A stretch of DNA of 64,000 nucleotides from positions 32,001-96,000 of the IMG/VR virus record IMGVR_UViG_3300001528_000580; one strand, 5' to 3'. Below are positions 12,702 through 58,492 of the stretch, one piece after another. Source of the stretch: a virus. Its lineage: Duplodnaviria; Caudoviricetes. How positions within the stretch are numbered: the stretch's first letter is position 1; every line of letters begins with the position of its first letter. The translations under genes were made by a program, and so were the position numbers. The notes beneath the pieces are model-generated. The model was not told the DNA's origin and searched no databases. It saw only the letters and a program-made list of their open reading frames with translations.

Positions 12702-13196
12702 ATAAAAATTTTAGCGAAAAATGATCTAACCAATGAACAGGTTAGAGCGATTGACGAAAATGGTGTTCAATTGGGCGTTATTTCAATGTATAAGGCGTTT
12801 GAGGTTGCTTTAAGTAGAAACTTGGACTTGGCATTGGTTTCAGAAAACATAAGCCCTAAAGTCGTTCGTATTGTAAATTATGGCAAAATAAAATATGAAC
12901 AGAAGAAGAATAAGAAAAATCAAAAAAGTAATGAAGTAAAAACAAAAGAAATTAAGTTTGGTTTAAATGTTGGAGACAATGATTATAAAATTAAACTTAA
13001 TAAGATTATCGAATTACTTGAAGATAATTGTAAAGTAAGAGTTTATTTAGTATTAAAAGGTAGAGAAATAATACATAAAGATTTGGCTTTTGAATTTATG
13101 AACAAAATAATCAATGATTTAAAAGAGCATGGAAAAACAGAAGATAAACTATCATTAGTTGGTAGAAATATAATAATAAATTTTACAAAGGTGTAA
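12702..13196 (+). CDS. infC: translation initiation factor IF-3 with non-AUG start
   Basis: In-frame extension upstream of the tracked ORF gives NEQVRAIDENGVQLGVIS...LDLALVS...RIVNYGKIKYEQKK...KEIKF...KGRE; AAGGAG at 12688-12693 then ATC/ATA/ATT, no in-frame ATG. Confidence 0.9.
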   Translation: MKILAKNDLTNEQVRAIDENGVQLGVISMYKAFEVALSRNLDLALVSENISPKVVRIVNYGKIKYEQKKNKKNQKSNEVKTKEIKFGLNVGDNDYKIKLNKIIELLEDNCKVRVYLVLKGREIIHKDLAFEFMNKIINDLKEHGKTEDKLSLVGRNIIINFTKV

Positions 13197-18382: not shown

Positions 18383-19507
18383 TCAGACGGCTGTTGTCGA
18401 TTGACAACAGCCTACCTTAAACGAAGATGCCCCTTCGTTATATATATTAAAACTAGCATTACGATCTCTATCATGATGAGTGGAACATGCAGAGCATGTC
18501 CACTCTCTATCACTTAACTTGAGATCTTTATTTATAAATCCACATTTACTACAAGTTTTGCTACTTGGAAAATAACGGTTGATAAAATATATATTTTTTT
18601 TATATTGAGAACATTTATTTTTAAGAATTTGTAAAAATTGATAGAATCCTAAGTCATAAATTTTTCTTCCGAATCTTTTACTTATAGCTTGTAAATCTAA
18701 ATTTTCAAAAAAGAAGTTATCATATTTTTTAACTAAAGTTAAAGCTAATTTATTATGAAAATCTAATCTTTTATTATAAATTTTTTTGTGTAAACGAGCT
18801 AATTTAATTTTAGCTTTTTTATAATTATTGCTTCCTTTTTTCTTTTTAGATAAATTATTACTTAATTTTCTTAATTTAGCTATGTTTTCTAATAAATATA
18901 ATGGAGATTCTATATCTTCATAATCATTGCTTATTAAAAATGTTTTTAATCCAAAGTCATATCCAACAGATTTATCTGTTTTATCAATAACTTTTTCATC
19001 TTTATAATCAGTAATTACTACAATATAATATTCATTTAAATTATTTCTACTTACGCTTATCCTTTTTACTTTTCCTAATATTTCTTGACTTTTACTATAT
19101 TTATATATCCTATCTTTTATCTTTATTTTATTATTATCTAATATTTTAAAACCAGCTTTTTTTAATATCAATGATTTATAAAACTTACTCTTTTTAAATT
19201 TTGGCGGTCTGCTTTTTATATTTTTCTTTAAATTGCTGAAAAATAATTTATATCCCTTATCGATACGTTCAGTAACTTCTTGTAAAGCATCTATTGGTAT
19301 TTCTTTTAAATAATTGAATTTTTCTGTTTTTTTAAGTTTTGTTAAATGTTTTTGTAATTGATACATATTTAACATTTTATTATATCTTCTATAATATCTT
19401 TTATGAAGTTTTATACAATGATTATACCAATATCCACATACAGTTATCAAATTTGATAACTGATCATTGTTTTTATTTTTGTATAATTTGTATTTATATG
19501 CTTTCAT
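18383..19507 (-). CDS. tnpB: TnpB RNA-guided endonuclease
   Basis: N-terminal KAYKYKLY; RuvC motifs GYDFG, FFENL, DRDRNA; Zn finger CSKC...CSAC. Confidence 0.95.
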   Translation of the reverse strand: MKAYKYKLYKNKNNDQLSNLITVCGYWYNHCIKLHKRYYRRYNKMLNMYQLQKHLTKLKKTEKFNYLKEIPIDALQEVTERIDKGYKLFFSNLKKNIKSRPPKFKKSKFYKSLILKKAGFKILDNNKIKIKDRIYKYSKSQEILGKVKRISVSRNNLNEYYIVVITDYKDEKVIDKTDKSVGYDFGLKTFLISNDYEDIESPLYLLENIAKLRKLSNNLSKKKKGSNNYKKAKIKLARLHKKIYNKRLDFHNKLALTLVKKYDNFFFENLDLQAISKRFGRKIYDLGFYQFLQILKNKCSQYKKNIYFINRYFPSSKTCSKCGFINKDLKLSDREWTCSACSTHHDRDRNASFNIYNEGASSFKVGCCQSTTAV

Positions 19508-40416: not shown

Positions 40417-41162
40417 TGCAACTATCATTCTTTTTTTATCATGTTTTGCGAAAATAAAAGATATATCATTATCGATAATAATATAATATGGTATCTTCAG
40501 CTATCATAAAAAAATGAAAAAATTATTGTTTTTGTGCTTGAAATTTCAAAGAATTGATGTATGTTATATATTGTAAACAGGAAAGGAAATACAAGCAATA
40601 TGGATTATGAAATGATTTTTTTGTTGGTCGGTGTAGCGGTAATTATCGGCATTAAAATCTATGTTGCTTATCAGAAAACCAAACCTGAAAAAAGTTCAAA
40701 AAAAGTTCACAAGAATACTTGAAAAACTCAAAAACTGGTGTATGTTATAGTAAAGCAAAAGAACAGAGAACTTGAAAAAGAGCAAATAAAAAAATTCAAA
40801 AAAAGTTCAAAGTTGAGCTTGAAAAAAACACAAAACAGAGTATATTAAGTAATGTAAACGATAGCTCATAAGAGCAAATGATAAATCGAAAAAATCGGAA
40901 TGGCGATAAGGAAAGGATGGTTATAAAATGAAGTAACGTTAAAATAACAACCAACCTCTTGACATGATAAATAAAATTAAACGTTAACGCCGCAACAATA
41001 TGGTGAATAAAATGAAGTAACGAAGAAATAAACTTAACTTTTTGAATATATCGCTGTGTTAGCTAAAACATTAACGCCGAAGTCGGCATTAAAAGCGGGT
41101 AAGCGGAATGAATAAGATTCGAGATCGAACTTAACAAGTTATAAACTTGAATATTTGCTTAA

Positions 41163-41181
41163 AATTTCTACTTATGTAGAT
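41163..41181 (+). CRISPR. solitary Cas12a (type V-A)-like repeat AATTTCTACTTATGTAGAT
   Basis: Matches the mature Cas12a handle AAUUUCUACU-NNN-GUAGAU. Confidence 0.75.
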
Positions 41182-41322
41182 AAACTCACAGGAGAAATGG
41201 AAAATGAACATCGACTACGCCGCAAATACAAACATTCACCCTCCGTAACGTTTAATTAACCTTTTTTTAACTTAAATAATAATGATTAGATTTTTTTAGT
41301 TTTTCTTTTGATTGTTTCTTTT

Positions 41323-41341
41323 AATTTCTACTCGTGTAGAT
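41323..41341 (+). CRISPR. solitary Cas12a-like repeat AATTTCTACTCGTGTAGAT
   Basis: Same handle; only loop bases differ. Confidence 0.75.
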
Positions 41342-41419
41342 ACTAAGACAAAAAGTAATCAGGATAATCTTCCAAATGATGAAATTTTGTTAAATAAAAG
41401 TAAATAATCAGCCGTTGAT

Positions 41420-41495
41420 GCGTTCTTAACTCAGTCGGTAGAGTATCACCCTTTTAAGGTGAGAGTCATGGGTTCGAGTCCCATAGAACGTACCA
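41420..41495 (+). tRNA. trnK: tRNA-Lys(TTT)
   Basis: GCGTTCT/AGAACGT acceptor, TCACC-CTTTTAA-GGTGA anticodon arm, GGTTCGAGTCC, encoded CCA. Confidence 0.95.
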
Positions 41496-41892
41496 TTTTC
41501 TCAAAATTAGGTTGTAGAGAAGAACCTAAAAAATATAACAAAAACTGCTCTTGTTAAAATCATTTGAGATTTCGATTGGCAAGATACAAAGCATTGGAGC
41601 AAAAAAACCATGCACTTTATTAGAGCCATGCCGTAAAATAATTTCTTCATTTGTAATTTTCGATTATGTAATCCTTTTGAATAGCCTGTTATGAAAATAG
41701 CAGGTTATTTTTTTGTTTTATCATTTTCTTTTCTATTTATTATCTATAATTATCGATAATAATATATTTCAATATTTGGTTGTAGATAAAAAAATGAAAA
41801 AAAGTTTTATTTTAACTTGTAATTTTCAAATAATGATGTATAGTATATTTAGAGAACAGAGAAAACCACACTTAATATAAAGGGAATAAAAC

Positions 41893-44821
41893 ATGTTGGC
41901 TTTTGAAAAAACTCTTATGACCGTTTATTTCTCGAATGAAAACAAAGAATTAGCACCCCTTTTTATTGATGGCAAAATTGAACAGCAAAGGGACGGTTCT
42001 TTTTATGTCATTGTGAACGGTGAGCTTGTTGCCAAGTATGGCAATTATAACGATGCTGTGCAATTCGTCAAAGAAAACTATAAATAAAGGTTTGACATGC
42101 TTTATCTTGAAAAAGTAAATGTTCAATATGGTGCTCCAATGGGGCGTAGAGAATGGAATGAATGTCCCGGAATAAAAGTCTGTGGCAGTATTCAAGAAAT
42201 AGCCATGAGAGAAGGCTATGATTCAGGCGGCGCATATTGGGGAACTCCTAATAATGTATATTGCGCACAATACAATCATTTTGATAAGAATACAAATAAA
42301 GAGTATTCCGGCAGAGTGTTTGTACGTGCCTTTTCTCGTGAAAGTGCAATAGAGCAGGTGAATAAGATTAGCGGTTGGGAAAATGTAAAATTCCGCAAAA
42401 AATAAATCAAATTTATACACCTTAAAAAAATGAATTTGATTCAAAGAGGGAAAGAGAAATTCCCTCCTTTATTTTTTTATTTATTTGGATTCTAAACAAT
42501 ATTATTATCGATAATGATAATAAAAATAAATCGAATTTATTTTAGAATCAGACTTGAAAATGAAACGAAATAGTGTATAGTATATATAAACGGAGAACAA
42601 TTATATGCTTATTGCTTTATACATCATTGCATCATTAGCAATCATTTATTTATTGATTGCAGTATTGTTTTATGTGATTGCATGTAAAATCATGTGTCCC
42701 AAAAGCAAATGGCAATATATCGATTTAATGGTATTGGCTATTAACTGGTTTCCTGTATCACTTGTATTTATGTTTTTCACAGATTAAATTTCAAATTTTT
42801 TCATTTTATCACTTGACTTTTTGCGAGTTGAATATATATTAATAACATAGCAAGATAAAACCTTTCAACCACAACATAAAGGGAAAAATCATGGAAATCA
42901 AAACTCGTTACGAAATTCAGGATGACGAAAAGAACCTGAATAACATTGAACGGCAGAAAGAACAAACCAAAGAAGCTGGTCGGCAAGTTGCCGAATTGAT
43001 TATGCAGTTTATCAACGGTGGTTTTACTGCTGACTTCTTTGAAGGTTTCTTTGACATTATTCTGAATAGCCATCGAACATTGCAACAGGTATTTCAGAAA
43101 TACCTTATTCTTAAATGGATAAGAATGCAAGCACTCAAAACCGAAGGTTTTTTCGATGAGCGTAACAAGTATACGGTCGAACAATGTAAAATCATGGATA
43201 AAGCATTGCGTGACAATGAAAAACACTATAATCCACCGTTCATTTAATCGAAATATTAAAGGCTGATTGATTCAGCCTTTTTTGTTGTTTTAATATTATT
43301 GATATATTATCTATAATTATCGATAATAATATTTGAATTAATTTCATGTAATAAAAAAGTTTGAGTTAATTTCATTTTGTAGCTTGCAATTATATGTTTT
43401 TGGTGTATAGTAATATTAGAAACAAAAAAGCAATAGCTGTTACCACAATATAAAGGGATTAAATTATGAGCCAATACACCCGTCTTGCATGTTCTGACGA
43501 GCAGGAAAGAGCTATTGCAACTATTGAAAAATGGTTGAAGAAGCTGAATAAAAATATTTGTGGTTCTACCAAAATTGGCAAGTATTACGATACTGTGATT
43601 TTGGATTTGGAATTTCATGGGAACAACATTTATGTTCATTCAAATGGATTTGAAGATACTGACTTTGGTAATGAAGGAGTAACAGTAAATAATGTCCATA
43701 TTGAAAATGAAGGACAGTTTGAAAAGTTCAAGGATGCTGTTATGAAAGATGAATAATGAGCAGAACGTTTCGCAAAAGTGATATTTTCGAGTTTACGGAA
43801 GAAAGGCACAATAGGAGTGCCAAAGTTGACAAAAAACACTTGAGAATGAAAGTCCCTGATGGGAAGGTTCAAAGTCCTGTGTTTGATGCCTTTACAAATG
43901 ATGGTGATGGTTTTCTTGGTTATGGCGAAGAATTTTGTCACAAGAAGTTGTATAAGAAACTTCGTAACAAGAAAAAACGTCATCAAAAAGTTGATGAAGA
44001 ATAAAAAATATGATGCAGTAATTTAATTACTGCATTTTTTGTTTTTATATATTTGAAGATAATTTATGTATTATTATCGATAATAATATAGTTGTTGTTT
44101 TTATCAACAGAAAAAAGTAACATATTTTTTATTTTTCGACTTGAAAATATGATAATATGGTGTATAGTAATAAATAGAAAGAAGAAAGAGAGTTATGGAT
44201 AATATAATTGTTGTAGAAAAAATACTTGTTGTTTTATTTATAATTGCATTAGTTATATACGCTCATGTAGGATTATTCATTAGAACTAAATAAAAAAAGG
44301 GAAAGAAAAAATGAAAATTATTATTCCGATTGTCATGTTTGTGTTTGTGTTTTTCGCTTTTATTGCCATTGCTCAATGGCTGTGGAGCATCTTTTGTCCT
44401 GTATTTGGTTTGCAGGAAATGACTTTTTGGCAGATGACAGCTTTCCTTGTGTTTGTCTCTGCTTTCCTTGCGCCTTGTTGGGTTAAACGGTGAAATATTC
44501 CTGATAGTAAAATAGTTGAACAACCGAAAAGTAAAGGGTAACACAATGGAAACCAAGAAACCGACAAGGGAAGAAGTTAAGAAAAAAACTTTGTCCGAAG
44601 AATTTGCAAATTTTTTCGGAAACCTTTACTTTCGATGGCTCGATGAGAAAGATTATGAGGACATCGAAGAATACAAAAAAGTCATTGAAAGAGAACTCGG
44701 TTACTCAATTAAGAGAATCAAAAAACGTCCTTTCAGTATCGAAATTGAAACAAGTGACAATTTCCTTATGACACTCAAAGCCAATTCCAGTGGTATTGAG
44801 TTGTTTCGACAGGCAATCTAA
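41893..44821 (+). CDS. small array proteins (41893-42087, 42097-42405, 42605-42787 TM, 42891-43247, 43466-43756, 43756-44004, 44311-44493 TM, 44546-44821)
   Basis: Each in a promoter/RBS/terminator unit; 42097 has YGAPMGR...GYDSGGAYWG. Confidence 0.6.
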
Positions 44822-45018
44822 TATCAATTTATGGTGGTGAAATATCCACCATTTTTGTTTTGCTAATTGAGTAACATTATTTTATATTATTATCGATAAT
44901 AATAAATTTATATATTCATTGCTAGATAAAATTTTGAATTTTTATTTTATTTTAACTTGACTTTTTCAAAAACTATGATATGTTATAAGTAGTAAAACAA
45001 CCATAGGGAGTATTAGAA

Positions 45019-45582
45019 ATGGATACGGCATATGTTTCACTTGAAGAAGCAAAAAGGCTTTCTTTTCAGTATGTCAAAGAAGCATACGATTATTTTGTAG
45101 AACATATTGAAGAAACACCGTTTCGGTATGAAAAACACCGTATTAAACTTATGCCTTTTATCATTTGGAAGAAAAAGGGATTCAAACTTGCAGGAACAGC
45201 TCATGGTGGTTCTCTGAATACTATTGAAATGAATATCAATTTCTTGTATTCACCGGACGCAATGAGATTTATCAAAAACACAAGTGTTCATGAATTAGCA
45301 CATCTTATCAATGGTTGGTTTCATGGACGTAACCATGACAAACAATGGAAATATATTGCTAAATTCATTGGTGACGATGGTGAACGTTGCCATGATTATA
45401 AGCTGCCGGAGATTGCAAGTAATAATCACAAGTATACAGCTTATTGTGCTTGTCGTGAATGGAAGTTTACAAAGTATCGTTATGACAAGTGCGCTGACGG
45501 AGGCTATCGTTGTAGGAAGTGTGGTGAACTGTTATCAACAAAACCATATCAAATATTGACAATTCACGTTAAAGCACAATAA
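45019..45582 (+). CDS. SprT-like zinc metalloprotease
   Basis: AG.A, HELAH, HDKQWK, C-terminal CAC...CRKC Zn ribbon. Confidence 0.8.
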   Translation: MDTAYVSLEEAKRLSFQYVKEAYDYFVEHIEETPFRYEKHRIKLMPFIIWKKKGFKLAGTAHGGSLNTIEMNINFLYSPDAMRFIKNTSVHELAHLINGWFHGRNHDKQWKYIAKFIGDDGERCHDYKLPEIASNNHKYTAYCACREWKFTKYRYDKCADGGYRCRKCGELLSTKPYQILTIHVKAQ

Positions 45583-45721
45583 ACAATATAATGGAGCTAT
45601 ACAAATGGCTCCATTATTCTTTTTAGAATATTGTTGTTTTTAGATATACTATTATCGATAATAATATATAAATGATTATTTTGATGTGATAAAAAAATTC
45701 TGATTTTTTTTGAAACGTTAC

Positions 45722-46051
45722 TTGAAATTTAGTTGTTTGAGTGTATAGTATATATTGTAACAAGAAAACGTTACAAGTTGATTGAAAATGAGGTTAAATA
45801 AAAAACTGATTTTCTTTGAAATAAGACTTGAAAAACTTAAAAATGGTGATACATTATAAGTAACAAGCAAAAAGCTGTTAAGTTGATAAAAAAAAGAAAA
45901 ATCAAAAAAAGTTAAAAATAAGACTTGAAAAAATCAAAATCGATGATATAGTATATAGTATCAAAGAAAAAGAAAACAAGTCAAGTTTATAACAAAAAAA
46001 ATTAAAAAAGTTTACAATGCCACTTGAAAAATTAAAAAATGGTGGTATAGT
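45722..46051 (+). promoter_or_regulatory. four tandem sigma70-like promoters
   Basis: TTGAAA at 45722, 45828, 45925, 46024, each with a -10 hexamer 16 nt downstream and an A/T tract upstream. Confidence 0.75.
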
Positions 46052-46116
46052 AATAAAAGAAAAGAGAACTGAATGGTTCGGTTCTCAAAAACCTGAAATC
46101 ATGAAGGAGGTAAATC

Positions 46117-46638
46117 ATGATTCGTAAATTTGAAGTTGGAATGAAGCTGGAAATTCAGAACGGCGCTCAGCGGGTCAATGTCATCGTGACCGATGTTCCG
46201 GAAGATGCCAATGAAAAGCTGACGGTGGCATTCGAGAAGTCCGGCAAGGAACGCAAGATTTCTCGTGAAGCGCTGAAAACAGCCACTCGTGTGAAAGAAG
46301 TCAAGGAAAAGCGTCCGTCCGTGGTTTCGACGGCGATTCAGATTCTCGTGGACAAGAACGTCCCGATGACAATCAAGCAGATTACCGAGTGTCTGCCCGA
46401 ATATGGGTACACTCAGCCTCGTGAGGGAAAGACCCTTGCGAACAGTGTTTCGAGCCGGATGAACGGTGCCGCCAAAGAAGGCAAGTGCAAGAAGCTGGCG
46501 AACGGCGTATTCGCCGCAAACGAATGCACCGTGGAGTATGTGAAGCCCTTGACTGCCGCTTCCAAGAAGGCTCTTGAAGCCGAAGCCAAGAAAGAGGCGG
46601 TTGCGAAGGAACTGGCGGAGGCTCTTGCCGAAGCCTAA
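46117..46638 (+). CDS. SH3-like + HARE-HTH protein, highly codon-adapted
   Basis: SVVSTAIQILVDKNVPMTIKQI...GKTLANSVSSRM...GVF; GC-rich codons; AAGGAGGT RBS. Confidence 0.7.
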   Translation: MIRKFEVGMKLEIQNGAQRVNVIVTDVPEDANEKLTVAFEKSGKERKISREALKTATRVKEVKEKRPSVVSTAIQILVDKNVPMTIKQITECLPEYGYTQPREGKTLANSVSSRMNGAAKEGKCKKLANGVFAANECTVEYVKPLTAASKKALEAEAKKEAVAKELAEALAEA

Positions 46639-46863
46639 GAGGTGACAATGGGGGAGAAATCCCCCTTGTTCTAAAAAAATTAAACACTATCAGAAAAAAA
46701 CTGATAGTGTTTTTTATTACATATTTTTTTGAAACTATTGTTTATTATTATCGATAATAATATAATTGTGTGTTACTTATGCAGATAAAAAATTCAATTT
46801 TTCTTTTGTTTTAACTTGTAATTTTCTAAATGTGGTGTATAGTATATTAAAAGGAAGAAAAAT

Positions 46864-49438
46864 ATGAAACTTATAATTAAAGATTCTGCAAACTCGTTTA
46901 TAATCAGTGATTCAATGCACTATCATAAGGTATTGCAGGAACGTGAAAGATTAGGTTTTCGTAATGTTGGAATTGATAAAGTTCCAACTCATGATGAAAT
47001 AAAAAATCTTCCTATATTTGCAGGTGGAAAGTTTGTTTATAAAACAGAACCTAAAGTTATATGGGAAGTCGAAGAAATAACAATAGAATGGTTGGATGGA
47101 TATTATTTTAATGCTTTCTGTTCAAATGGGAAAGAATATAGGTGTATACCATTCTATAACCGTAATTGCATCAATCCCCATATTATAAGGGATATTGACA
47201 ATTTCAAAAACAAAACAACCATAAGGAATAGGAAGAATGAAAAAAGCGATTTATAATCGGCAGGGAAATCAGATTGTTGAAACTGGTCATAAAACTTTTG
47301 ACCGTCAAACAAATGCTATTTCACATGGCAATGTTATAGCCAATACCATGTTCGGCTCATATATTCGCTCTTATACTGAAACTGAGTGTAATGGTTTTGA
47401 TTTTCCTGTTGGACATTTGTTTAATGTTGATATGAAGCCATTTATTGAACGGATGGGATTACGCAATCAGCGTATTATTGAATATATCAAAGAAGAAACA
47501 GAAGCACGGCAAAAGTCCGTTATTCTGTATTGCTTTTTCCATTGGAGAAATGGGGAACGTATCGTTCATGGATACATTTTGACTGACTGGGATTATAATC
47601 ATATTCAAACATTTTATGGAGAAAGATATAGCAGTAAATCCATTTCAGTTCTTGAAGAATGCAAACAGTATGTTTGTAATTGAAACTGATTCAAAATTCA
47701 GGAGTATAAAAAGCTCCTGTTTTTTATTTTAATTTTGAATCCGATTTATTATCTATTGTTATCGATAATAATATATCTTAATTTATTAAAGCAAAAATAA
47801 TTATGATATATTAATAAAATTGATTGATTTTTCTATTAACGATTGTATATTAGCTATAACCAAATAGGAGAATAAAAATGAATAGAAATGAATCAAATTC
47901 AAAAAACATTGATTCCATTGAAGAACATACTCGGAAAACAGAAAGAAAGATTATTATAATATGGAGTATTACATTAATTATAATAATATTATCAATTATA
48001 AATGTGTTCTATCCATTTATTTCTGATTATATTGATTCATATTTTATAAATGGAAATGGAGAAATAGATTATAATAAAAAAACGTATAGCCTTGTTTCGT
48101 TTATGATATGGTATGTTCCATTTTGTTTCATGATTTTCAAAAAATAAATAATAATATTTTTTCTATATAATAACTTGCATTTCATTAAAATTGGTGTATA
48201 GTATATATACAATCAATATGGAAGGGAGTTAAAAATGGCAAATGTTTGTGAAACAATTATCATTGCTGAATTTGATTCAGAGAAAGCAAAAAATGAATTA
48301 TTTTTGAAACTCCAAAACACCATAAAGAAAAATGATGACGGAATAGATTATTTCACTCTTGGAAGTGAAAAGTGTTTTTTGTTTGATGGAGCTATTGAAG
48401 ATACTGAACAGTCACCAAAGAAATTGGAAATGGTTTTTTCTTCAAAGTGGACAGGTTGTGAATCCATTGAAGTATTCAAAGAAATTATCGAATATTTGAA
48501 AGTAGATGGATTGAAAAAATTTGCTTTATATGATTATGAACCTTTAGAAAATTTCAAATACCATTATACCTATCATAATGGAAAATTTTATGAAGGAAAA
48601 GGAAATGCTCATGCAGGGAAATATATGGGAATTGAATAAAAATTAAAAAATAGATTTGACTTTTCATAATATGCTCTTATATTATATGTAATATATAATA
48701 TAGGAGTATAATGTTATATGAATAAAATTGTTTATATTATAGGTGGAATTGTTGGATTTATTATTGGATATAGTGCTGTAATGTTATTACTAACATTTTT
48801 AGCACAATGGTTATGGAGTATCTTTTGCGTTTGTATAAATTGCAGTCCCATGTCCTATTGGCAAATGTTTAGTTTTATTATCTTCTTATCAATGTTTATT
48901 GTACCTCGTTATGTAAATACAGGAAAATAACGTTTTTTTCTATATAACAACTTGCATTTTATAAAAACTAGTGTATAGTATATGTAGAAACAAAAAACAA
49001 AATAAGAGGTCAAAATTATGTGCGCTGGTGCTTGCAAATGTAAAGAACGTAAAGAAATTGCAAAGAAAGCTGCAAATGCAAAACTTGACGAAGCAAGGGA
49101 GCTTGCAAGGCAGTTGATGGACGAGGGAAATGAAGGTGTTACAAAACTCGACAAAATCATGACTTTGATTGATACAGCCAAAAATCATATTCACAACATT
49201 TAACCAAAATAATAAGGTAAAAATTATGGCGAAGATTGTTGTTGTAGTTCATGGTGGATTGGTGGAAAGTGTTTACACTGATGACGGAAACGCCGAAGTA
49301 AAGTTGATTGATTACGATATTCTCAAGGATGACATGGGAAAATCGTATCAGGAAATTACTGAAATTACCAAAAAAAATGTTGGCGACCTGAAAAATAATC
49401 CTATCGGATATGTTTCCGATATTGAGGAAGTTGAATAA
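46864..49438 (+). CDS. small array proteins (46864-47256, 47237-47683, 47878-48147 TM, 48235-48639, 48718-48930 TM, 49018-49203, 49226-49438)
   Basis: ORFs with promoters/RBS; 48718 is a paralog of 44311 (AQWLWSIFC...M..WQM). Confidence 0.55.
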
Positions 49439-49698
49439 AAATTAGAATATAACAACCTACAATGCGATTACCCATAGAGATATGCGGTATGTGGAACAGA
49501 GTAGGTTGTTTTTTTATATATTTAATGTCGAATATTCATATATTATTATCGATAATAATATACATTATTTTGTTTGTTAAAATGTTACCATCAAAAAATA
49601 TTATATTTTTTCATAAATCAACTTGAAAAATTGCGTTAAAGGTGTATAGTATATATAGAATGAAAGAGAAACACCAAAACAACCACAAGGTGAATATA

Positions 49699-50433
49699 AT
49701 GGAGATTAGCAATCTGACGATTGAACTTACTCGTAAATGCAACATGAAATGCAAACATTGCTTGCGTGGTACTCCTCAATGTGTTTCTTTGAGAAGAGAA
49801 GCATTGAAAAATATTTTCAAAAATGTTGAATATATTGGAGCATTACAATTTACAGGCGGTGAGCCGTTGCTTGCATTGTATCAAATGCGGCAAATTGTCG
49901 ATTACTTGAAATGGGCTAATATTGAAATTGGCTATTTTTGGATTAAAACCAATGGAACTATCTTTTCAAAAGCATTCTTGAAATATTTGCAGGAATTGCA
50001 GAATATTACAAATGAACCTGACATGTGTTGTATGGAATTTTCGCTTGATCAATATCATAATAGCAAATATAAAAATGTTATTTATGAATATCAAAATTAT
50101 GAATATGAATACACTTTCATTAAAGCAAGTGACAATTTGCATAGTAAATACAATAAAATTTATACTATTATTAAAGAAGGTAGAGCTAAACGGTTAAGGA
50201 AATACGAGGTTTACAATTTTGATAAACCGAGCTTTTATGATGGTTGGAATGCTGATGATTATGATACCGATAATATGATATATGTTTCAGCAAATGGTAA
50301 TGTAATGACAGATTGCAATTTGTCATTCAATAGCATTGACAAGTATTCTTTCGGAAATATTTACAAAGAAACACTTGAAAGTATTGTTGACAGGAACACC
50401 AAAGAAGAAATTAAAAAAATTTATGCAAAATGA
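49699..50433 (+). CDS. radical SAM protein
   Basis: TRKCNMKCKHC (CX3CX2C), FTGGEP, TNGT, SLD, twitch/SPASM-like C-terminus. Confidence 0.85.
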   Translation: MEISNLTIELTRKCNMKCKHCLRGTPQCVSLRREALKNIFKNVEYIGALQFTGGEPLLALYQMRQIVDYLKWANIEIGYFWIKTNGTIFSKAFLKYLQELQNITNEPDMCCMEFSLDQYHNSKYKNVIYEYQNYEYEYTFIKASDNLHSKYNKIYTIIKEGRAKRLRKYEVYNFDKPSFYDGWNADDYDTDNMIYVSANGNVMTDCNLSFNSIDKYSFGNIYKETLESIVDRNTKEEIKKIYAK

Positions 50434-50919
50434 CAAATAACAACTTGAAATTCTCGCTTTTTGTGTTATATTAACAATAACAACCAAAGGGAGGTTTGAG
50501 AATGGGAATGATTAAAGTCCGTGCATCAAAAATTAAATGGAATGTCGATGACAAATCAGAACTTGAATATTTGCCAACTGAATGTATTCTTGAAGTTGAA
50601 ATCGATGAACTGGATGAAGTCATCAGTGACAAATTAAGTGAAGAATATGGCTTCTGCCATGAGGGATTTGAATATGAGATTATAAAATAAACACAACACA
50701 AGAGAGTAACTATATAGTTACTCTCTTTTTTATTTTGTTGTTTGATAAAAACTATTATATTATTATCGATAATAATATAAATACTATTGTTATATATGTA
50801 TAACAAATAAAAAATATACTATTTTTTTTAGTTTTTACTTGAATTTTTCTAAATATGGTGTATAGTAAACACATAGCAAAAAATAACCTAAAACCACAAC
50901 TATAAGAAAAGGTGAAAAA

Positions 50920-51339
50920 ATGAATAATCAAGTATTGGAAGTCCTTTCTCTGATTGAAAACAAAAAATCGGATATTATTACATGTATTGATGAACTGAAA
51001 AGTTTTGAAATTATTAGCATTGAAACCTTACAAAAAGCACATGATAGAAGAAAATATTATAAAACATTAAAGTATTTTGGCGTTTTGAATTATTTGATGT
51101 ATCAAAAATTTTTTGACTTTTGGCACAAAAAATGTGACAAATGTAATATTGAACATAGTTTTAATAAACGTTATCAAATGATTCATGCTGTATTAAGTTT
51201 GTTAAAAAAAGAAAATAAAAAAATGACCTTTAAGGAATTGTCGGAAATTTGTGAATGTCAAATTATAGATATTAAAAATTTTCTTGACAGTCAATATAAT
51301 TGTGGAAAGTTTGAAAACAATATTATTGATGGAAAATAA
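50920..51339 (+). CDS. HTH protein, paralog of 29427-29981
   Basis: Shared YQMIHAVLxLLK...ELSxICxC...YNCxxFENxII. Confidence 0.65.
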   Translation: MNNQVLEVLSLIENKKSDIITCIDELKSFEIISIETLQKAHDRRKYYKTLKYFGVLNYLMYQKFFDFWHKKCDKCNIEHSFNKRYQMIHAVLSLLKKENKKMTFKELSEICECQIIDIKNFLDSQYNCGKFENNIIDGK

Positions 51340-51588
51340 GAATAGTAAAAATGCAAGGAATTTATCTTTGCATTTTTGTTTTAACATTTTATGATTATAA
51401 ATTAATATTATTATCGATAATAATATAATATGATATAATCACTTTCCAAAAATGATTGTGATACTAAACAAAAAAATATTGACTTTTTTCATTTTAACAC
51501 TTGAAAAATCATTGTTTGGATGTATATTTATATTAGAAAAGAGAAACAAGGGGTTTCTCTAAAACGACAAACCATAGTGGAGGTAATT

Positions 51589-52053
51589 ATGGAAAAGTCA
51601 CAAGTCAGAGTCGGTTGGAAGTATCGCAAAGTTTGTGGTGCTGTCGCATCGGAAATTTCAATCGTTGAAAAACTGGAAGACGGAACTTTTACCTGCTCTT
51701 ACAAGAGCGGAAAAACGTTCAAGGCAAGCCGTGAAACGATTTGCTCATGGGAACGCATCGTCAAGGCAAAGCCGGAACACAAGAAGCGCATCAATCAGCC
51801 TGTTTTGGTTGACGCTTGCAAAACGGCGTTGAACGCTGAAAAGCGTTGGTTGACACCTACGGAGCTTGTCAAGCAGTTGGTCGAAAAGGGGCTTTACAAA
51901 TTCACGGAGAAAGCCAAAACGCCCCATTGCACTGTCAGCAGTCGGTTGAATACTTATTTGCGTGAAGGCGGCAAAGGTATTCAGAAGTTCGGGCGTGGAC
52001 ATTTCGCCGCCGAAGGTGTTGAACCTCCGGTTGCAACTCCTGCCGAAGCATAA
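51589..52053 (+). CDS. SH3-like + HARE-HTH protein
   Basis: LVDACKTALNAEKRWLTPTELVKQLVEKGLY...AKTPHCTVSSRL...GRGHF; GGAGGT RBS before ATG 51589. Confidence 0.75.
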   Translation: MEKSQVRVGWKYRKVCGAVASEISIVEKLEDGTFTCSYKSGKTFKASRETICSWERIVKAKPEHKKRINQPVLVDACKTALNAEKRWLTPTELVKQLVEKGLYKFTEKAKTPHCTVSSRLNTYLREGGKGIQKFGRGHFAAEGVEPPVATPAEA

Positions 52054-52238
52054 GGAATAAAAGCAAGGGGAAAATTCCCCTTGCTTTTTTGTTTCCAACT
52101 TTTACCATCATAATCTTATATTATTATCGATAATAATATATTTTTGATCGATGGTCTTTTTTTGTCTACAGATCTCGTACTATAGATCTGCGGACATCTT
52201 TTTATATCATTATCGATAATAATATATTAATGTTTGAT

Positions 52239-52475
52239 GGTAGATAATAATAGTTATTAGATTGTGGTAAAGATAATAATAATTATCAGATTCAGGTAAA
52301 GATATTTCAGTTGAAATGATTATGGTAAAGATTAATCTATTGTTCAGATGAAGAAGGAGATGTTTGATTCATCTTGATGGAGATATTGATTAATTCATTG
52401 ATCAGATTATGATAAAGATTAAAATCTATTATAGATTATGATATAGATTAAAAAATAATCTTGATAAAGATTTAT
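52239..52475. repeat. degenerate ~29-bp tandem repeat (G[G/A]TAAAGAT core)
   Basis: Cores at 52239, 52266, 52295, 52324, 52411, 52440, 52463. Confidence 0.55.
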
Positions 52476-52479
52476 ATTG

Positions 52480-53506
52480 TTACCATAACAAAGATAAAAG
52501 AATTGACTTAATCAAACTTGGTTTATAAGTAAGATTATAAATATCATTTTCAAGTTTCCATCTTCTGATATTTTTATAACCAGTTTTTGCATATAATGGA
52601 ATATGAATTTTTGATTTATAATGTTCACTTACAAGATTCATAATATGGAATGCAGGACTAAATTCAAAATCTTCAACAGAAACTTTTCTGATTTTAAATT
52701 TTGAAAATCCAATGTTGAAAGTTTTATCAAGTGAAAAATTCTTTACTTCAACTTCTTCACTACAGATTTGATTATAACCACTTCTCAAATCAACCATTTC
52801 AATATTGCAAGTAACAAATGATTTGAGATCTTTGTCAACAACCAAATTAAATGTTGCGACATATTTTGCATTCAAGAACAAAGAATTATATTCAACAACA
52901 AAACTGTCAACAATTGAATCTTTAAAATATTCAAGATTAATTGTTTTTTCATCATCAATATTTACTTGTTCTTTATTTTCCAGAATTTCCTTCCAGAAAT
53001 TGTAACGAAAGATTGTCATATTATAAATGTGCTTCATAAATTTCTCCTATTTAAACAAGTTGATCTAATACTGCAAAAAGTACTAAATTATCTACTTTTG
53101 GAAATCTTTCTTTCAAAAGTTCGCAACAATCATAATAGGAAATTTCATGAGCTTGATATTGCGAATAAAATCTTTTACTTTTATCATAAATGCAAGAATA
53201 CAACATAATATTTCTTTCTTGAAGTTCAGTAATTACCATTTGGTAAAACATTTTCCTTGCAATATCATAGCAAAAATTATCTATTGTTTGTGTATTACAA
53301 TCCAATACTTTTGACATTTGATTTTTATATTCTTCTGAAATTTTTTCTTTTAACTCAAGAAGAACTGTAAATTCTTTTTCATGTTGTTCAAAACAATCAA
53401 AGGAATGAATTGCTACTGTACTTTTTTTAGAAAGAGTAGTTTCATATCTTGTATTAAAGATATCTGTATCATTATTCAAGACATCAGCAATGGTGTTGAA
53501 ACTCAT
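52480..53506 (-). CDS. two hypothetical proteins (53051-53506, 52480-53037)
   Basis: Minus-strand ORFs with AGGA/AGGAG RBS. Confidence 0.6.
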
Positions 53507-53943
53507 TTAAAACATTCCTTGTTCTTTAAGGTTGATATTATTATGTTCATGTTTTCCAATATAGCATATTTTTTTGAAATGTCAATATATCATTTTAAAA
53601 TCTATTAAGTTTTTTTGTTATTCATTTAAAGCGATTATAAGGCTCACATAGTTTGTGTGCATATATACACTGGTATTTTTAAATAACATGGCTGTATTTT
53701 CACGGAAATGCCTTTATTTCCTTTCCTATAATATAAAGAACGATTGTGTTTTATGTTTATGGATGACATGAAATAAATTTATCTGATAGTAGATGAATCA
53801 TTTTTAAATCTATAGCAAGAATGAATCGGATTCATTCTACAGGTCAAAATTTGAATTCGTTTCAATCTCAAGGGTCAAAATGAATCAGATTCATTTATAG
53901 AAAAAATAGGTGGAATGTATTTGATTTTTTCTATAAACATGTT

Positions 53944-54327
53944 ATGTTATATAAAAACTATAAGGATATAAGAAAAATGAAAGCTCCATATTATTCATGT
54001 GCATGTGGAAATTGTGATTTTTATAATTTTGCATTAAAAAAATGTATGAAACATGACTTTGATATTAATCCTTGTTATAATTGTTGTCCAGATTTTCAAA
54101 GACTCCGTGTTAAAGTAGGAGATAAAATCAAATTTGAATGGATGGGAGATATTGTAGAACAAACTGTTGTGAAAATTCATCCTTTTTTGGATTCAGAACG
54201 TTACGAAGTTGAATTTCCTGTCAAAAATGTAGCTCATCATAAAGTTTCTCCTGCTTCTATTATTATTGATCCTAATGATAACAGAAGATATACTAATGTC
54301 ACAGTTATTTGGACAGAAAAATCATAA
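53944..54327 (+). CDS. Cys-rich hypothetical protein
   Basis: CACGNCDFY...C...CYNCC. Confidence 0.5.
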   Translation: MLYKNYKDIRKMKAPYYSCACGNCDFYNFALKKCMKHDFDINPCYNCCPDFQRLRVKVGDKIKFEWMGDIVEQTVVKIHPFLDSERYEVEFPVKNVAHHKVSPASIIIDPNDNRRYTNVTVIWTEKS

Positions 54328-54531
54328 ATTTTTTTCAAAATTGAACTTGAAAAACCAAAATCATGTGTTATATTAAGTTTTGTTGACAGAGAAAAGCAGT
54401 TGTGAAAACAATACATATCAAAGTCAATAAAAAAAATGAAAAAAAGTTCTGAATTGAACTTGAAAAAAACAAAACTCGATGTATATTGAGTAATGTGACA
54501 GGGAAAACCTGATGCTGATTGAAAAAAATTA

Positions 54532-54778
54532 AACTTATGAGCGGTAGGCTTAGAAGTAGCCATCCGATAATGAGTGAAAGGAACCACCAATTAGTGCAAA
54601 ATGTCAAGAAATATCTAATGGTTCAATTATAAACGACTTAGAATCGATAAACTTGATTCAAGGTATATGTTGATGATGTGCATTTGGTAAAATGGGAATA
54701 AGCATGGTTAATGACCATCACCCAGATTAGATAATACTATGGGGTCGCTTTCTTTGGTGTAATAACACATCATAAGTT
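54532..54778 (+). ncRNA. ncRNA resembling the 23S rRNA uL11-binding domain (H43/H44) with a large insertion, copy 1
   Basis: GTAGGCTTAGAAGTAGCCATC (54544-54564) and GTGTAATAAC (54757-54766), closed by AACTTATGA/TCATAAGTT. Confidence 0.7.
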
Positions 54779-54800
54779 CTTTTTTATAAATGCTGTTTGA

Positions 54801-54819
54801 AATTTCTACTTATGTAGAT
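54801..54819 (+). CRISPR. solitary Cas12a-like repeat AATTTCTACTTATGTAGAT
   Basis: Identical to the 41163 copy. Confidence 0.75.
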
Positions 54820-54828
54820 AAAATTATT

Positions 54829-55127
54829 AGAATGTCAAAACTTTTAATTTGTGAAATTTTGTGAGTTGGACTATTATTGTTATAACTCAATAATGAAAAT
54901 AGTAACAAATGAACCGACAAGTTGAATATAACATGTCGATGAAAGTATCTTGCGAGTGTGGTTTGGTGACACCTTCTGCGAGTATTTCGTGGAGATAGAG
55001 GTTCGATTCCTACATGAAAAATCGAAAGTATTGTGATAGCAATTATAATTTGCTAATGTCTTCGGACGATCATTAAGTTGAGGCGCATAAATACTTAATG
55101 ATGATAATGTCACTATCACGGCATTCT
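54829..55127 (+). ncRNA. unclassified structured RNA
   Basis: Terminal stem AGAATGTC/GGCATTCT, T-loop GGTTCGATTCC, GTCTTCGGAC tetraloop hairpin; no credible ORF. Confidence 0.45.
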
Positions 55128-55143
55128 TTTTTTAGATTTAAAT

Positions 55144-55219
55144 GGACCGTTAGCTCAGTGGTTAGAGCAGGAAACTCATAATTTCTTGGTCGGGGGTTCA
55201 AGTCCCTCACGGTCCACCA
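55144..55219 (+). tRNA. trnI: tRNA with CAT anticodon, probably tRNA-Ile2 (lysidine, reads AUA)
   Basis: GGACCGT/ACGGTCC acceptor (paired 1-72, so not initiator), C4-G69/C5-G68 TilS-type determinants, encoded CCA; elongator Met not excluded. Confidence 0.85.
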
Positions 55220-55652
55220 TTTAAAATTCCCATCTACTCGATGTAAAGAGTCGGCAAAACATCTAACGCCGTTAAATTGATGTGTTTTCCTCAAGGCTAA
55301 CGAGGTTTTTTACCAACAGTTTTTAAAATTAAAACGGTTGGCTCTGATGAGATGGGTTATAAACCTAATTGGTGAGTAACCGAAACATAAAGGTACAGTC
55401 TTTACCTTTAGTGATGGTAAAACATAGACACAATTTTGACGTTAATCATGTTAGCGTTGCTCCATGCTATTAGCTAGTCATGAGTTATGGATGCTGTTGG
55501 TTAGTAGGAGCGCAATTAGCTCTGACGGGGTTCAACTCCCTGCAATCCAGTTTCTTCAAGTGGTTGCAAACTCTTGAAGATGCTCTTGAGCATTGAGCAA
55601 AAGCGAAAGCAACATAGATGACAGCTTGGAAAGACAAGCGATTATGATTTTT

Positions 55653-55711
55653 AGTCAGAGGGCATTGGTCAAGACCAATCGATTACGTGGTGTAGTGAAG
55701 CATATCTGACT
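55653..55711 (+). ncRNA. permuted tRNA-like core with vestigial acceptor stem
   Basis: 3' half TCAGA-GGGC-ATTGG-TCAAGA-CCAAT precedes 5' half TG-GTGT-AGTGAA-GCAT-A-TCTGA-CT. Confidence 0.45.
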
Positions 55712-55844
55712 TTTGTTTTCCAAATTTTTCTCTCTTTTTGGTTGGCTAGTAGATAAATATTTATCTACTAGCTTTTTTATTTTCAAACTATTGAATTTAT
55801 TGTATATTGTGTTATATTATATTAAATTCATACAAGGAAAAATA

Positions 55845-56393
55845 ATGCGTAGAAAAGAAATACATAAACCAGATCATCCAAATGCATATAAAAATGGTAA
55901 TATTTTAGAATATGTTTATATTGCATCAAAAAAATTAAATAGACCATTATTGAAAGGTGAGATTGTTCATCATATAGATGAAAATCCATTTAATAATGAT
56001 GAAGATAACCTAATGGTATTTGCTACAAAATCAGATCATAATAAATTTCATGCAAATGGACTTGATTTTAACATAGTTGAAAAATTAAGTAATGGTTCTT
56101 ATAAAATAAAAGATGATGTTATGCTAATAAGTAGCAAAGAATTTATTTGTGAATATTGTCATAAGAGATTTATTGCAGAAAAAATAAATCATAAGAAAAA
56201 TAAAATATATTGTTCAATTGAATGTTCAAATAAAGATAAAGAAAAGTTCGATATTCCAATTGAACAATTAAAAGAACTAGTTAAAACATATAATTTAACC
56301 AAAATAGGAAAAATGTTTGGTGTTTCTGACAATGCAATCAGGAAAAGATGTATTAAAAATAACATCGATTTTAAAAATAAGAAAAAATCATAA
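55845..56393 (+). CDS. HNH homing endonuclease with Zn finger and HTH
   Basis: HPNA..NG, VHHIDENPFNNDEDNL; IGKMFGVSDNAIRKRC. Confidence 0.85.
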   Translation: MRRKEIHKPDHPNAYKNGNILEYVYIASKKLNRPLLKGEIVHHIDENPFNNDEDNLMVFATKSDHNKFHANGLDFNIVEKLSNGSYKIKDDVMLISSKEFICEYCHKRFIAEKINHKKNKIYCSIECSNKDKEKFDIPIEQLKELVKTYNLTKIGKMFGVSDNAIRKRCIKNNIDFKNKKKS

Positions 56394-56491
56394 AAAAATT
56401 CAATTTTTTTATTTTGGGAGCTTGAAAAAAACAATATTTGGTGTATATTAAGTATTGTAACAGGGAAACCTGATGCTATTTGAAAAATTAT

Positions 56492-56569
56492 AGAGGTGCT
56501 TGGAAAAACTTTCAACGAGTAGACTTTTAATCTAAATACGTGCAAACAGGTTTTTTCGCTTATTCCTCT
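56492..56569 (+). ncRNA. scaffold RNA displaying a tRNA-Lys(UUU) anticodon stem-loop
   Basis: TAGA-CTTTTAA-TCTA inside the same AGAGGTG...TTCAACG / ACGT...ATTCCTCT frame as 58105-58244. Confidence 0.6.
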
Positions 56570-56657
56570 TTTTTTCAAATATTTTTAAAAATAATACTTG
56601 AAAAAATCAATATTAGGTGTATATTAAGTATTGTAATAGGGAGACATGATATTTGAA

Positions 56658-56725
56658 AATTTCTACTTATGTAGATAAACAAGGAAAACTTGAGGTTGAT
56701 TAAAAAAATTTCTACTTATGTAGAT
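56658..56725 (+). CRISPR. two Cas12a-like repeats separated by 30 nt (mini-array)
   Basis: AATTTCTACTTATGTAGAT at 56658-56676 and 56707-56725, just downstream of a promoter. Confidence 0.75.
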
Positions 56726-56987
56726 AAACATTAGAAACAAATGGTGAAAAGCCGTCAGGAATCTACCCATCACGCACCATGATTAGTGATGTGGTTTACT
56801 GAAAACGAGGTACGAAAGAACAGAGTCTTTTTGAGTATATCTCATAAGCTATAGCGTACAACGAGGCGATGCTAGTGAAATGCAATAAAAGTAGCGGTCA
56901 TGGTACAACCTGCATAGGATGTGGAGTAGACTGAAATATATCAGCTACGTATCAAGAAATTGATTAAACATGTAATTTCTAATGTTT
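56726..56987 (+). ncRNA. unclassified structured RNA
   Basis: 12-bp terminal stem AAACATTAGAAA/TTTCTAATGTTT, several GNRA-type hairpins, GC-richer than flanks. Confidence 0.5.
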
Positions 56988-57330
56988 TTTGCTCTTATGA
57001 GCTGATGGACTTGTACTCAATTGCAACTTAACATTATTCATAATGTTGATGTAAAAGGTCTGACGTACAGTACCTAAAATAAAGTAATGACCTGCCTAGA
57101 TTGAAGCACTAGAAACTTATGCTTCACAGCTTTATGTCGATATTGAGCTGTTTATCCGTAGGATAAAAAATAATCGGTAATCCAAGATGTAATTCTTAGC
57201 ATTGCAAGCATACTAAGTGAGGATTTAAAACATTAATAACTTGATGCTGATAGGTAAGCTATCACTTTTTCAAGATTTTTTTATATTTATCATATATGTG
57301 TAAAATATAAATAATGTTGATTGAAAATTT

Positions 57331-57622
57331 TGTCAAAAGTTGAAATGTTGGATTAGAGGCATCCATCATCTAAGGAGTAACCCACGACATTGAACATTGC
57401 AACTGTAATCACTGATACTTAAAAAGGAAACACTTACAATAAACCAGTGAGCCATAATTAACTGAATAATGACAAAAACTGTTAGGTTGGTATAAGTGAT
57501 AACTTTAAAAGAATGTGATATGCTTACATGTCCTAATTCAGTAGGAAGGTTCGATGGCTAACGAGGAGCATGAGATTACATGCTGAAAGGTTTTTGGCAT
57601 AAAAGCACATCAAGTTTTGACA
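57331..57622 (+). ncRNA. ncRNA resembling the 23S rRNA uL11-binding domain with a large insertion, copy 2
   Basis: GTTGGATTAGAGGCATCCATCATCTAAGGAGT (from 57347) and GCATAAAAGC (57597-57606), closed by TGTCAAAAgTTGA/TCAAgTTTTGACA. Confidence 0.65.
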
Positions 57623-58104
57623 TTTTTATTCATACAATATAATTGTATAGCTATCATGCTAGCTAACTCGTGATACATCAGTGGTTAAAAGGAGCTGTAT
57701 ATCACTGAAAGAGTTTGAACTTACAGCTTGAAAAACTTGATCATGATTGTGGTGCGATAGTTTTTCTTCTTGACCCACACATGGAGTTGGTTAGCTACCA
57801 ATACTCCATGATTTTTATGAAAAAAGTTCAGAAATGAGCTTGAAAATAAAAAAATCAATGCTATATTATAGTATTGAAAGAAAAAAATAGACGATAGCAT
57901 GGAGACGTTTTTCTTGAAATAAAGAAAAATTTAGACAATGCAACTAACTTGAAAATTTGATGGTTCAATCAAGTTACGGAGCTATTCTGAAAGAGATAGC
58001 AATTATTATCAGAAATCATTTAGCTTATGGATGTGAAAGCTATGAACTTATGTTCTAAAGTATGTCAAAGAGATATATAATCATTTTTGCTGATTGAAAA
58101 TTAT

Positions 58105-58244
58105 AGAGGTGGCATAAAAACGTTCAACGCTGATAACGTCGAGGCTGTAGGTTCGAGTCCTATTATTATAGATAGATAATATCAAACTATAATATAGCTC
58201 AATTGGGTAGAGCACGTAAAAAATGTTTTTATAGTAATTCCTCT
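58105..58244 (+). ncRNA. circularly permuted tRNA-Ile(GAT)-like RNA
   Basis: 3' part (58127-58171) precedes 5' part (58188-58216); all four stems pair when rejoined. Confidence 0.75.
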
Positions 58245-58258
58245 TTTTATAAATTCAT

Positions 58259-58347
58259 GTCTGGGTATGCGAATTGGCATAGCAAATTGACTTAAAATCA
58301 ATTGTATTCCGAAAGGTATGAGGGTTCGAGTCCCTCCCCAGATACCA
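58259..58347 (+). tRNA. trnL: tRNA-Leu(TAA)
   Basis: GTCTGGG/CCCAGAT acceptor, ATTGA-CTTAAAA-TCAAT anticodon arm, long variable arm, GGTTCGAGTCC, encoded CCA. Confidence 0.92.
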
Positions 58348-58492
58348 TTTTTACCCAAGAGATTAAATAAAAAATAATCTCTTGGGTTTTTTTATGTATT
58401 TTTCTTAAATTAACGGTTCGAGTCCAGTTTTAATATTTTTTTATATTTTCTTTTATATGAAAAATTTTAATATGAAAGGAAGATATTAAAAA

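Follow-up and report, generated by a model that had tools for sequence, protein, structure and literature searches.

Canonical Cas12a repeat handles as candidate RNA decoys in a large phage whose own Cas12a array has an altered stem

Introduction

RacrVA1-3, the solitary repeat units among RNA anti-CRISPRs (Racrs), are virus-encoded mimics of the type V-A CRISPR repeat that are detached from cas genes, have a promoter upstream and lack a targeting spacer; titration of Cas12a has been proposed for them, and V-A Racrs inhibit MbCas12a (Camara-Wilpert et al. 2023, PMC10651486). For CracrVA1 and the viral crlRNAs, and for host CreR, a handle of 19-20 nucleotides (nt) suffices for Cas12a-dependent processing, and the viral RNAs compete with CRISPR RNAs (crRNAs) for Cas12a (Liu et al., bioRxiv 10.1101/2024.10.29.618823). 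Also described are viral mini-arrays (Shmakov et al., bioRxiv 10.1101/2023.03.03.530964) and the adaptation-less CRISPR-Cas systems of huge phages (Al-Shayeb et al. 2020, PMC7162821); the accessible part of the latter report names Cas9, V-I, V-U, V-F and CasPhi, not Cas12a, and a 2022 follow-up survey may list V-A. Here, a 64,000-nt stretch of Caudoviricetes DNA (the window; positions 32,001 to 96,000 of IMG/VR record IMGVR_UViG_3300001528_000580) was analysed, which carries five copies of the 19-nt Cas12a repeat handle in non-coding transcripts, and the genome that it belongs to encodes a Cas12a whose array has a different handle.

The handles differ from RacrVA1-3 in several respects: they comprise 19 nt only, whereas catalogue examples in the accessible part of the source (PMC10651486) span 33-36 nt; they occur in five copies inside existing tRNA and non-coding RNA (ncRNA) transcripts and not as stand-alone genes; their placement changes from strain to strain; and a Cas12a with a different handle is encoded by the very phage that bears them. 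Searches with near-full repeats would probably miss such 19-nt handles. In contrast to CracrVA1, the handles lack a terminator of their own and are followed by unconserved sequence, and no 9-10-nt seed in a cas12a promoter flanked by a protospacer-adjacent motif (PAM) was detected. Window positions 56658-56725, a repeat, 30 nt and a second repeat behind a promoter-like site, have the layout of a viral mini-array, but the "spacer" is a phage leader with boxB-like and boxA-like motifs and a relative has one handle there. The phage Cas12a locus resembles those of huge phages, as far as the accessible part of that report describes them, in that effector and array occur together with no cas1 found, the catalytic residues are intact and the phage exceeds 400 kb, but its A:U handle occurs in 0 of 54 other cas12a arrays. 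V-A Racrs, Cracrs with 19-nt handles, viral mini-arrays and adaptation-less phage CRISPR are already known; apparently new here is the pairing of candidate decoys with an own Cas12a, and the literature searched, whose coverage leaves out many subscription papers, contains no description of canonical-handle decoys beside an own changed-stem Cas12a in a phage.

Canonical Cas12a handles in the phage genome

A pattern search identified five exact Cas12a handles with 0 mismatches, all on the plus strand, at positions 41163, 41323, 54801, 56658 and 56707, which bears out the positions, the transcribed strand and the loop-only variation given in the original prediction. The loop is TTAT in four of the five copies and TCGT in copy 41323. 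Shuffling gave an expectation of 0.07 matches at two or fewer mismatches for the window pattern, and a third-order Markov estimate gave approximately 0.0007 exact copies genome-wide, compared with five observed. The source genome is complete and circular (440,868 bp, 25% GC, 33 tRNA genes called), and its exact handle copies are the five in the window only.

Each copy has the composition of a V-A 5' handle, namely AAUU, a UCUAC stem arm, a U-initial loop of 4-5 nt, GUAGA and a final U in 19-20 nt, and shares 17 of 17 fixed stem and flank positions with the Cas12a handle, the loop being variable. The stem is predicted to form in transcript context, with stem probabilities of 0.66-0.97 over the five copies. 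The identical 19-mer serves as repeat handle in bacterial V-A arrays from Clostridia, Succinivibrio, Patescibacteria and others, several of which adjoin cas12a, and the predicted identity as Cas12a handles is thereby upheld. Comparison of the sites also confirmed that conservation is limited to the 19-nt mature handle, with nothing further common to all five. As repeat mimics, the handles lie outside any array or cas locus, approximately 139 kb from the phage Cas12a and array, whose repeat differs, although copies 56658 and 56707 are paired and not solitary.

An altered stem in the array of the phage Cas12a

The original prediction had noted no cas gene in the window and had presumed a phage without cas genes. 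The former holds, leaving aside an IS605-family TnpB (374 aa, with a Cas12f1-like TNB domain) at 18383-19507 on the minus strand, another of which occurs in the relative L271; the latter fell when the phage genome (G000) was searched, as a Cas12a of 1186 aa is encoded at G000:C1:227292-230852 (L114:454-4014), outside the window, and is followed by a 14-repeat array at G000:C1:230992-231844. The protein passes the TIGR04330 model with 710 bits against a cut-off of 300 and is at best approximately 34-35% identical to cellular Cas12a. The RuvC residues D836, E922 and D1155, Nuc R1123 and the pre-crRNA RNase residues of the WED domain (H728, K737, K787 and Y791) are present and agree in alignment with 81 other Cas12a proteins, and by these residues the phage Cas12a is catalytically intact. 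A canonical V-A locus would have cas1, cas2 and cas4 and a C:G loop-proximal pair; here Cas1 was not found in the genome, cas2 and cas4 not being the subject of a separate search, and an A:U-type arm runs throughout the array. No target of the 13 array spacers was found in the phage's own genome, fetched loci, INPHARED phages or plasmids, nor in two exact scans of IMG/VR, and comparison with 399 genomes from the taxonomic class to which a Clostridia metagenome-assembled genome belongs gave weak matches only.

Cas12a orthologues are known for a shared handle, so that guides cross-load. The array repeats have the stem TCTAA/TTAGA and the window handles TCTAC/GTAGA, a compensated change from C:G to A:U at the loop-proximal pair. 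In a related phage, the Cas12a of which is 67% identical, the changed stem is present in 46 of 46 repeats from three assemblies, with variable loops, and the TCTAA arm is present in all 60 repeats read from four phage-clade arrays, none of which has the canonical arm. The segregation is complete, with ten solitary sites in the clade canonical and 60 array repeats not. Among 54 cas12a-linked arrays, which were fetched without regard to repeat sequence from partly redundant loci chosen by similarity to the phage protein, 48 have TCTAC, six have TCTGC and none has the A:U pair, and C:G at the loop-proximal pair is therefore invariant in this sample. TCTGC/GCAGA is another natural stem variant, found in the cellular cas12a arrays L195, L199, L206, L218, L224 and L225. 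The canonical hairpin has a predicted stability of -4.8 kcal/mol, compared with -1.5 kcal/mol for that of the array. In a screen of 35,682 repeat variants with AsCas12a, the variants of top activity had changes in stem pairs 1 and 4 only, and base-pairing by itself was insufficient (bioRxiv 10.1101/747170); among Cas12a orthologues, stems are held in common and loops are interchangeable (PMC11031708). Given these limits on stem pairs and the changed pair of the array, canonical Cas12a probably uses the phage crRNAs poorly, and the phage Cas12a may in turn reject canonical handles.

Of 221 strongly conserved columns, 59 are changed in the phage-clade Cas12a. The deviations include N672S, L667T and G683S in the WED domain and R19C, which are compatible with a changed RNA preference, as well as W488L, GF to KM in the bridge helix and ANGAY to TIASF after the third RuvC aspartate; PAM and trans-cleavage of the enzyme may be unusual. 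A GNAT acetyltransferase of 170 aa lies directly upstream of cas12a (L116:6701-7213; G000:226700-227212). It was considered as a relative of AcrVA5 and rejected, as it is a generic GNAT and its 60 best PDB matches do not include AcrVA5. A lysine found in 64 of 81 homologues, which we take to be the one acetylated by AcrVA5, is replaced by Arg546 in the phage Cas12a; the related phage keeps the lysine and has no GNAT upstream of cas12a. With two cases, the GNAT and Arg546 are possibly a second means of discriminating between host and own enzyme.

Turnover of the handles among relatives

Syntenic contigs of relatives were found through the open reading frame (ORF) at 53944 and were read in 20-kb pieces, and their handle counts are floors. 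The close strain L160 (85-97% nucleotide identity) has no handle at 41163, 41323 or 54801, and L165 also lacks the first of these. L160 has one handle in the promoter unit of 56658, which is single-handled in L160-L162 with a different RNA behind it, and one new handle before an ORF of 154 aa. More distant strains have handles at L165:1268, L275:2783, on the minus strand of L275 and at L277:1012. In total, the clade has ten distinct solitary sites with six loops (TTAT, TCGT, TTTT, TAATT, TTCT and TTGT) and one invariant canonical stem, all sense-oriented behind promoter motifs.

Alignments with these relatives show the handles as short clean insertions into pre-existing sequence: the junction at 41323 is handle-free in relatives, and at 54801 the boxA-like motif of relatives is joined straight to the following RNA. 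In L275, tRNA-Lys is followed by an insertion of 29 nt that bears a 4-nt direct repeat. The insertions are trimmed to the functional 19-20 nt and almost never include the 5' half of a full repeat. The sequence downstream of the handles is unconserved between strains and often paired, and these shifting sites with unrelated downstream sequence indicate that the handles are not conserved guides. A required maturation step by Cas12a, which the original prediction had proposed as processing of the ncRNA operon, is excluded, as the 54829 RNA, tRNA-Met and tRNA-Lys units occur handle-free in relatives and do not need Cas12a for their processing.

Beyond this clade, solitary canonical handles occur in at least 113 viral stretches (55 matches have one loop type), some of which are chance matches. 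The large AT-rich phages G001 and G002 have three handles each, among them a two-handle unit and a handle that precedes a tRNA-like gene, and cas12a was not found in either. The presence of handles in phages where no cas12a was found points to host Cas12a as their addressee. In the 640-kb phage G001 (C1:156925; L119/L127), a handle has a promoter-like region on one side and an interrupted tRNA-like gene on the other, an anatomy like that seen here.

The decoy reading

On balance, the handles probably act as Racr-type decoys: riding on phage transcripts that would be abundant, they would titrate host Cas12a, and the stem-pair swap would insulate the Cas12a of the phage itself. The decoy option of the original prediction gains support from exact, sense-oriented handles that lie behind promoter motifs and have an invariant canonical stem, and from their turnover. 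The sequences show repeated insertion of 19-nt handles, with sites that vary by strain, into predicted transcripts of putative strong sigma70-type promoters, the recipients being tRNA and ncRNA units and 5' leaders. These transcripts would be abundant; host Cas12a would bind them and cut just 5' of the handle; and Cas12a loaded with non-targeting or base-paired RNA would leave a smaller pool carrying anti-phage crRNA. By analogy, the handles would work like Racrs in binding and inhibiting Cas12a. The stem swap would spare the phage Cas12a from titration by its own decoys and would also keep phage crRNAs off the host enzyme. The fuller two-channel strategy, in which canonical handles jam host Cas12a while the phage's own Cas12a runs on a naturally orthogonal A:U handle, is put forward tentatively, as slightly short of an even chance.

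Several points weigh against the decoy reading. Its support is at the level of sequence, and host Cas12a is assumed, the host evidence being a weak hint of Bacillota from Fhs clusters; PurA homologues were uninformative on the host, the Gp23, Terminase_6N and Sigma70_r2 profiles used in host assignment gave no matches, and the terminase is nearest, at 32%, to that of an uncultured 485-kb phage. The 54 comparison arrays are partly redundant and were chosen by likeness to the phage protein, and the AsCas12a screen covers only the opposite direction, a canonical enzyme with altered repeats, and top variants only. Pure decoys can also fail against CreR-regulated systems: spacer-mutated CracrVA1, a pure sponge, reduced crRNA loading and did not rescue the phage where CreR autorepresses cas12a, a failure that follows from derepression of host cas12a (bioRxiv 10.1101/2024.10.29.618823). 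Multiple copies on strong promoters may be the answer to such derepression, or the elements may carry undetected seeds.

If the decoy reading is correct, the phage, with a compact Cas12a of 1186 aa, would illustrate how a phage can combine a CRISPR weapon with an inhibitor of that CRISPR type and not disarm itself, and repeated insertion of 19 nt into abundant transcripts would be a cheap route of origin for RNA anti-CRISPRs. If the two-channel strategy also holds, the RNA anti-CRISPR of the phage would have selected for a natural orthogonal Cas12a/crRNA pair, the A:U handle and its enzyme, which could serve in multiplexed editing or diagnostics.

Alternative functions of the handles

The handles could instead be Cracr-type guides, with host Cas12a taking up the downstream 21-23 nt and a short seed leading it to repress the promoter of host cas12a or other host promoters, titration being secondary. 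CracrVA1 has a like anatomy of a 19-nt handle and a 21-nt guide (bioRxiv 10.1101/2024.10.29.618823), and other viral handles do match cas12a promoters: the guide of the handle in L024, another phage, matches 13 nt next to TTTA in a cas12a promoter, which shows that the promoter-seed test can detect a Cracr-type element. In the same test, the five guides of the window and three of relatives matched 74 cas12a promoter regions over 5-8 nt, the level of shuffled sequences, although the true host promoter is probably outside this sample; a seed of at least 9 nt beside a TTTV-type PAM, in a cas12a promoter or CreR spacer, was not seen in the 74 regions, nor was a stand-alone gene of handle, guide and terminator as in CracrVA1. 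The would-be guides had no self target in the phage genome beyond chance level and no PAM-flanked one above 11 nt, the best match being 16 nt without a PAM. No foreign spacer with a protospacer, as in a targeting mini-array, was detected in a non-exhaustive search of other genomes, and the spacers of same-handle bacterial arrays gave no convincing match to the phage among the matches listed. The downstream sequences are older than the handle insertions and consist of phage leader or RNA stems, and the guide option of the original prediction finds no support in these comparisons; a guide function is thus unlikely. Separately, the solitary handles L024/L075 (a 155-kb phage of IMG/VR) and L029/L045 have guides that resemble host CreR spacers, and the 13-nt seed of L024 lies in the cas12a promoter of L196; these are probable CracrVA candidates.

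It is distinctly unlikely that the Cas12a of the phage itself, accepting both hairpins, is the addressee of the handles, for restraint, timing or 5'-end trimming of phage RNAs. The RNase site of the phage enzyme is intact by its residues, the canonical hairpin is predicted to be the more stable, and contigs of both the handle region and cas12a of the related phage co-occur in three metagenome samples. However, the two handle types are fully segregated, the would-be guides have no seed match to the upstream region of the phage cas12a or the array leader (maximum 8 nt), phages in which no cas12a was found bear the same elements, and the changed conserved positions include those in WED and R19C.

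The Cas12a RNase could also be an optional sensor or switch that acts in Cas12a hosts only, with cleavage or binding of a handle in a 5' leader altering downstream stability or translation. Several handles are indeed followed immediately by a ribosome-binding site or by the first helix of an RNA (L160:7566, G002, 54801 and 56707), but the downstream genes and RNAs vary by strain and occur handle-free in relatives, which leaves no specific sensor output conserved and makes this function quite improbable. Neutral debris, that is, functionless repeat fragments from recombination with host arrays, would fit the unconserved positions and the short microhomologies at insertions, but is very improbable for ten independent sites that are all sense-oriented behind putative strong promoters, trimmed to 19-20 nt with the 5' half almost never kept, and variable in the loop only. 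Least probable of all is a non-CRISPR hairpin for boxB-like antitermination or RNase cleavage, a lookalike that arises by following the A-rich ends of boxA-like motifs: three window handles do abut such motifs and overlap them with their first bases, but most boxA-like sites of the genome lack a handle, these leaders already have a boxB-like hairpin of their own ahead of boxA, and fixed stem and flank positions with a variable loop are the opposite of what boxB proteins, which read the loop, would need.

Transcripts that carry the handles

The features below lie on the plus strand of the window unless stated otherwise. Each handle has a sigma70-type promoter motif, TTGAAA...TATATT, 32-480 nt upstream on the same strand (consensus match only), and sits in a predicted non-coding transcript with tRNA-Lys, tRNA-Met or unclassified structured RNAs. 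The handles are embedded in longer transcripts, the nearest terminator-like sites on this strand being at 41679, 55624 and 55744. Behind the promoter-like site at 40819-40846, the handles at 41163-41181 and 41323-41341 share a long non-coding transcript with tRNA-Lys(TTT) at 41420-41495, the second handle lying 78 nt upstream of the tRNA; relatives have this tRNA without upstream handles.

Downstream of the promoter-like site of the ncRNA island, at 54460-54487, come a boxB-like hairpin at 54499-54511 and then a boxA-like motif at 54513-54525. A further boxA-like motif (54791-54800) abuts the handle at 54801-54819, behind which lie a structured RNA of approximately 300 nt with a long closing helix (54829-55135), conserved in handle-free relatives, and tRNA-Met (55144-55219). 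The promoter-like site at 56598-56625 lies 32 nt upstream of the two-handle unit, in which the handles at 56658-56676 and 56707-56725 flank a 30-nt pseudo-spacer (56677-56706) made up of a boxB-like hairpin (56680-56692) and a boxA-like motif (56695-56706). By its sequence, the pseudo-spacer is a duplicated phage leader unit with no indication of foreign origin. A structured RNA of approximately 260 nt (56726-56987), not at the syntenic site of L160, follows immediately, and the would-be seed of handle 56707 is predicted to be sequestered in its closing helix (paired probability 0.84); the would-be seeds at the other four sites are predicted to be partly paired. Long closing helices are predicted to start at 54829 and 56726, in line with the starts of the structured RNAs originally proposed. 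Neither RNA belongs to an Rfam family, and an Rfam search of the island returned tRNAs only.

The island consists of swappable cassettes, each behind a promoter, a boxB-like hairpin and a boxA-like motif (54340-58350, compared with L160:10350-13300 and L165:10360-13900), and its RNA sets differ from strain to strain. A structured RNA at 54536-54775 is missing from L160, as is handle 54801; a 34-nt piece of it also occurs in Pseudomonas phage pf16 (E 0.002), and its opening motif resembles what we take to be the L11-binding region of 23S rRNA. Positions 58113-58236 weakly resemble YrlA (E 0.004). In L160, approximately 280 nt (12878-13150) appear by eye to interrupt the anticodon arm of a tRNA-Leu-like gene and are possibly a group I intron. 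The boxA-like motif also occurs in the leader of the phage CRISPR array (G000:230868) and before several tRNA clusters (G000:204059 and 218408, and 329771 and 118452 on the minus strand), which suggests that the non-coding transcripts of the phage may be under Nus-type antitermination.

V-A Racrs often lie close to anti-CRISPR (Acr) genes. The ORFs that neighbour the handles encode HNH, SprT-like or HARE-HTH proteins or have no assigned family, and a Pfam scan found no Acr family among them, a library dedicated to Acr proteins not being used. A palindromic ATTATCGATAAT box, a candidate operator or recombination site, occurs in approximately 14 copies at 38133-61300, between terminators and the promoters of small genes, in a region that also holds several paralogous HARE-HTH/winged-helix ORFs. 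The genome has an amber-suppressor tRNA (CTA anticodon) at G000:256421-256495; the ORFs of the window nevertheless read normally in table 11.

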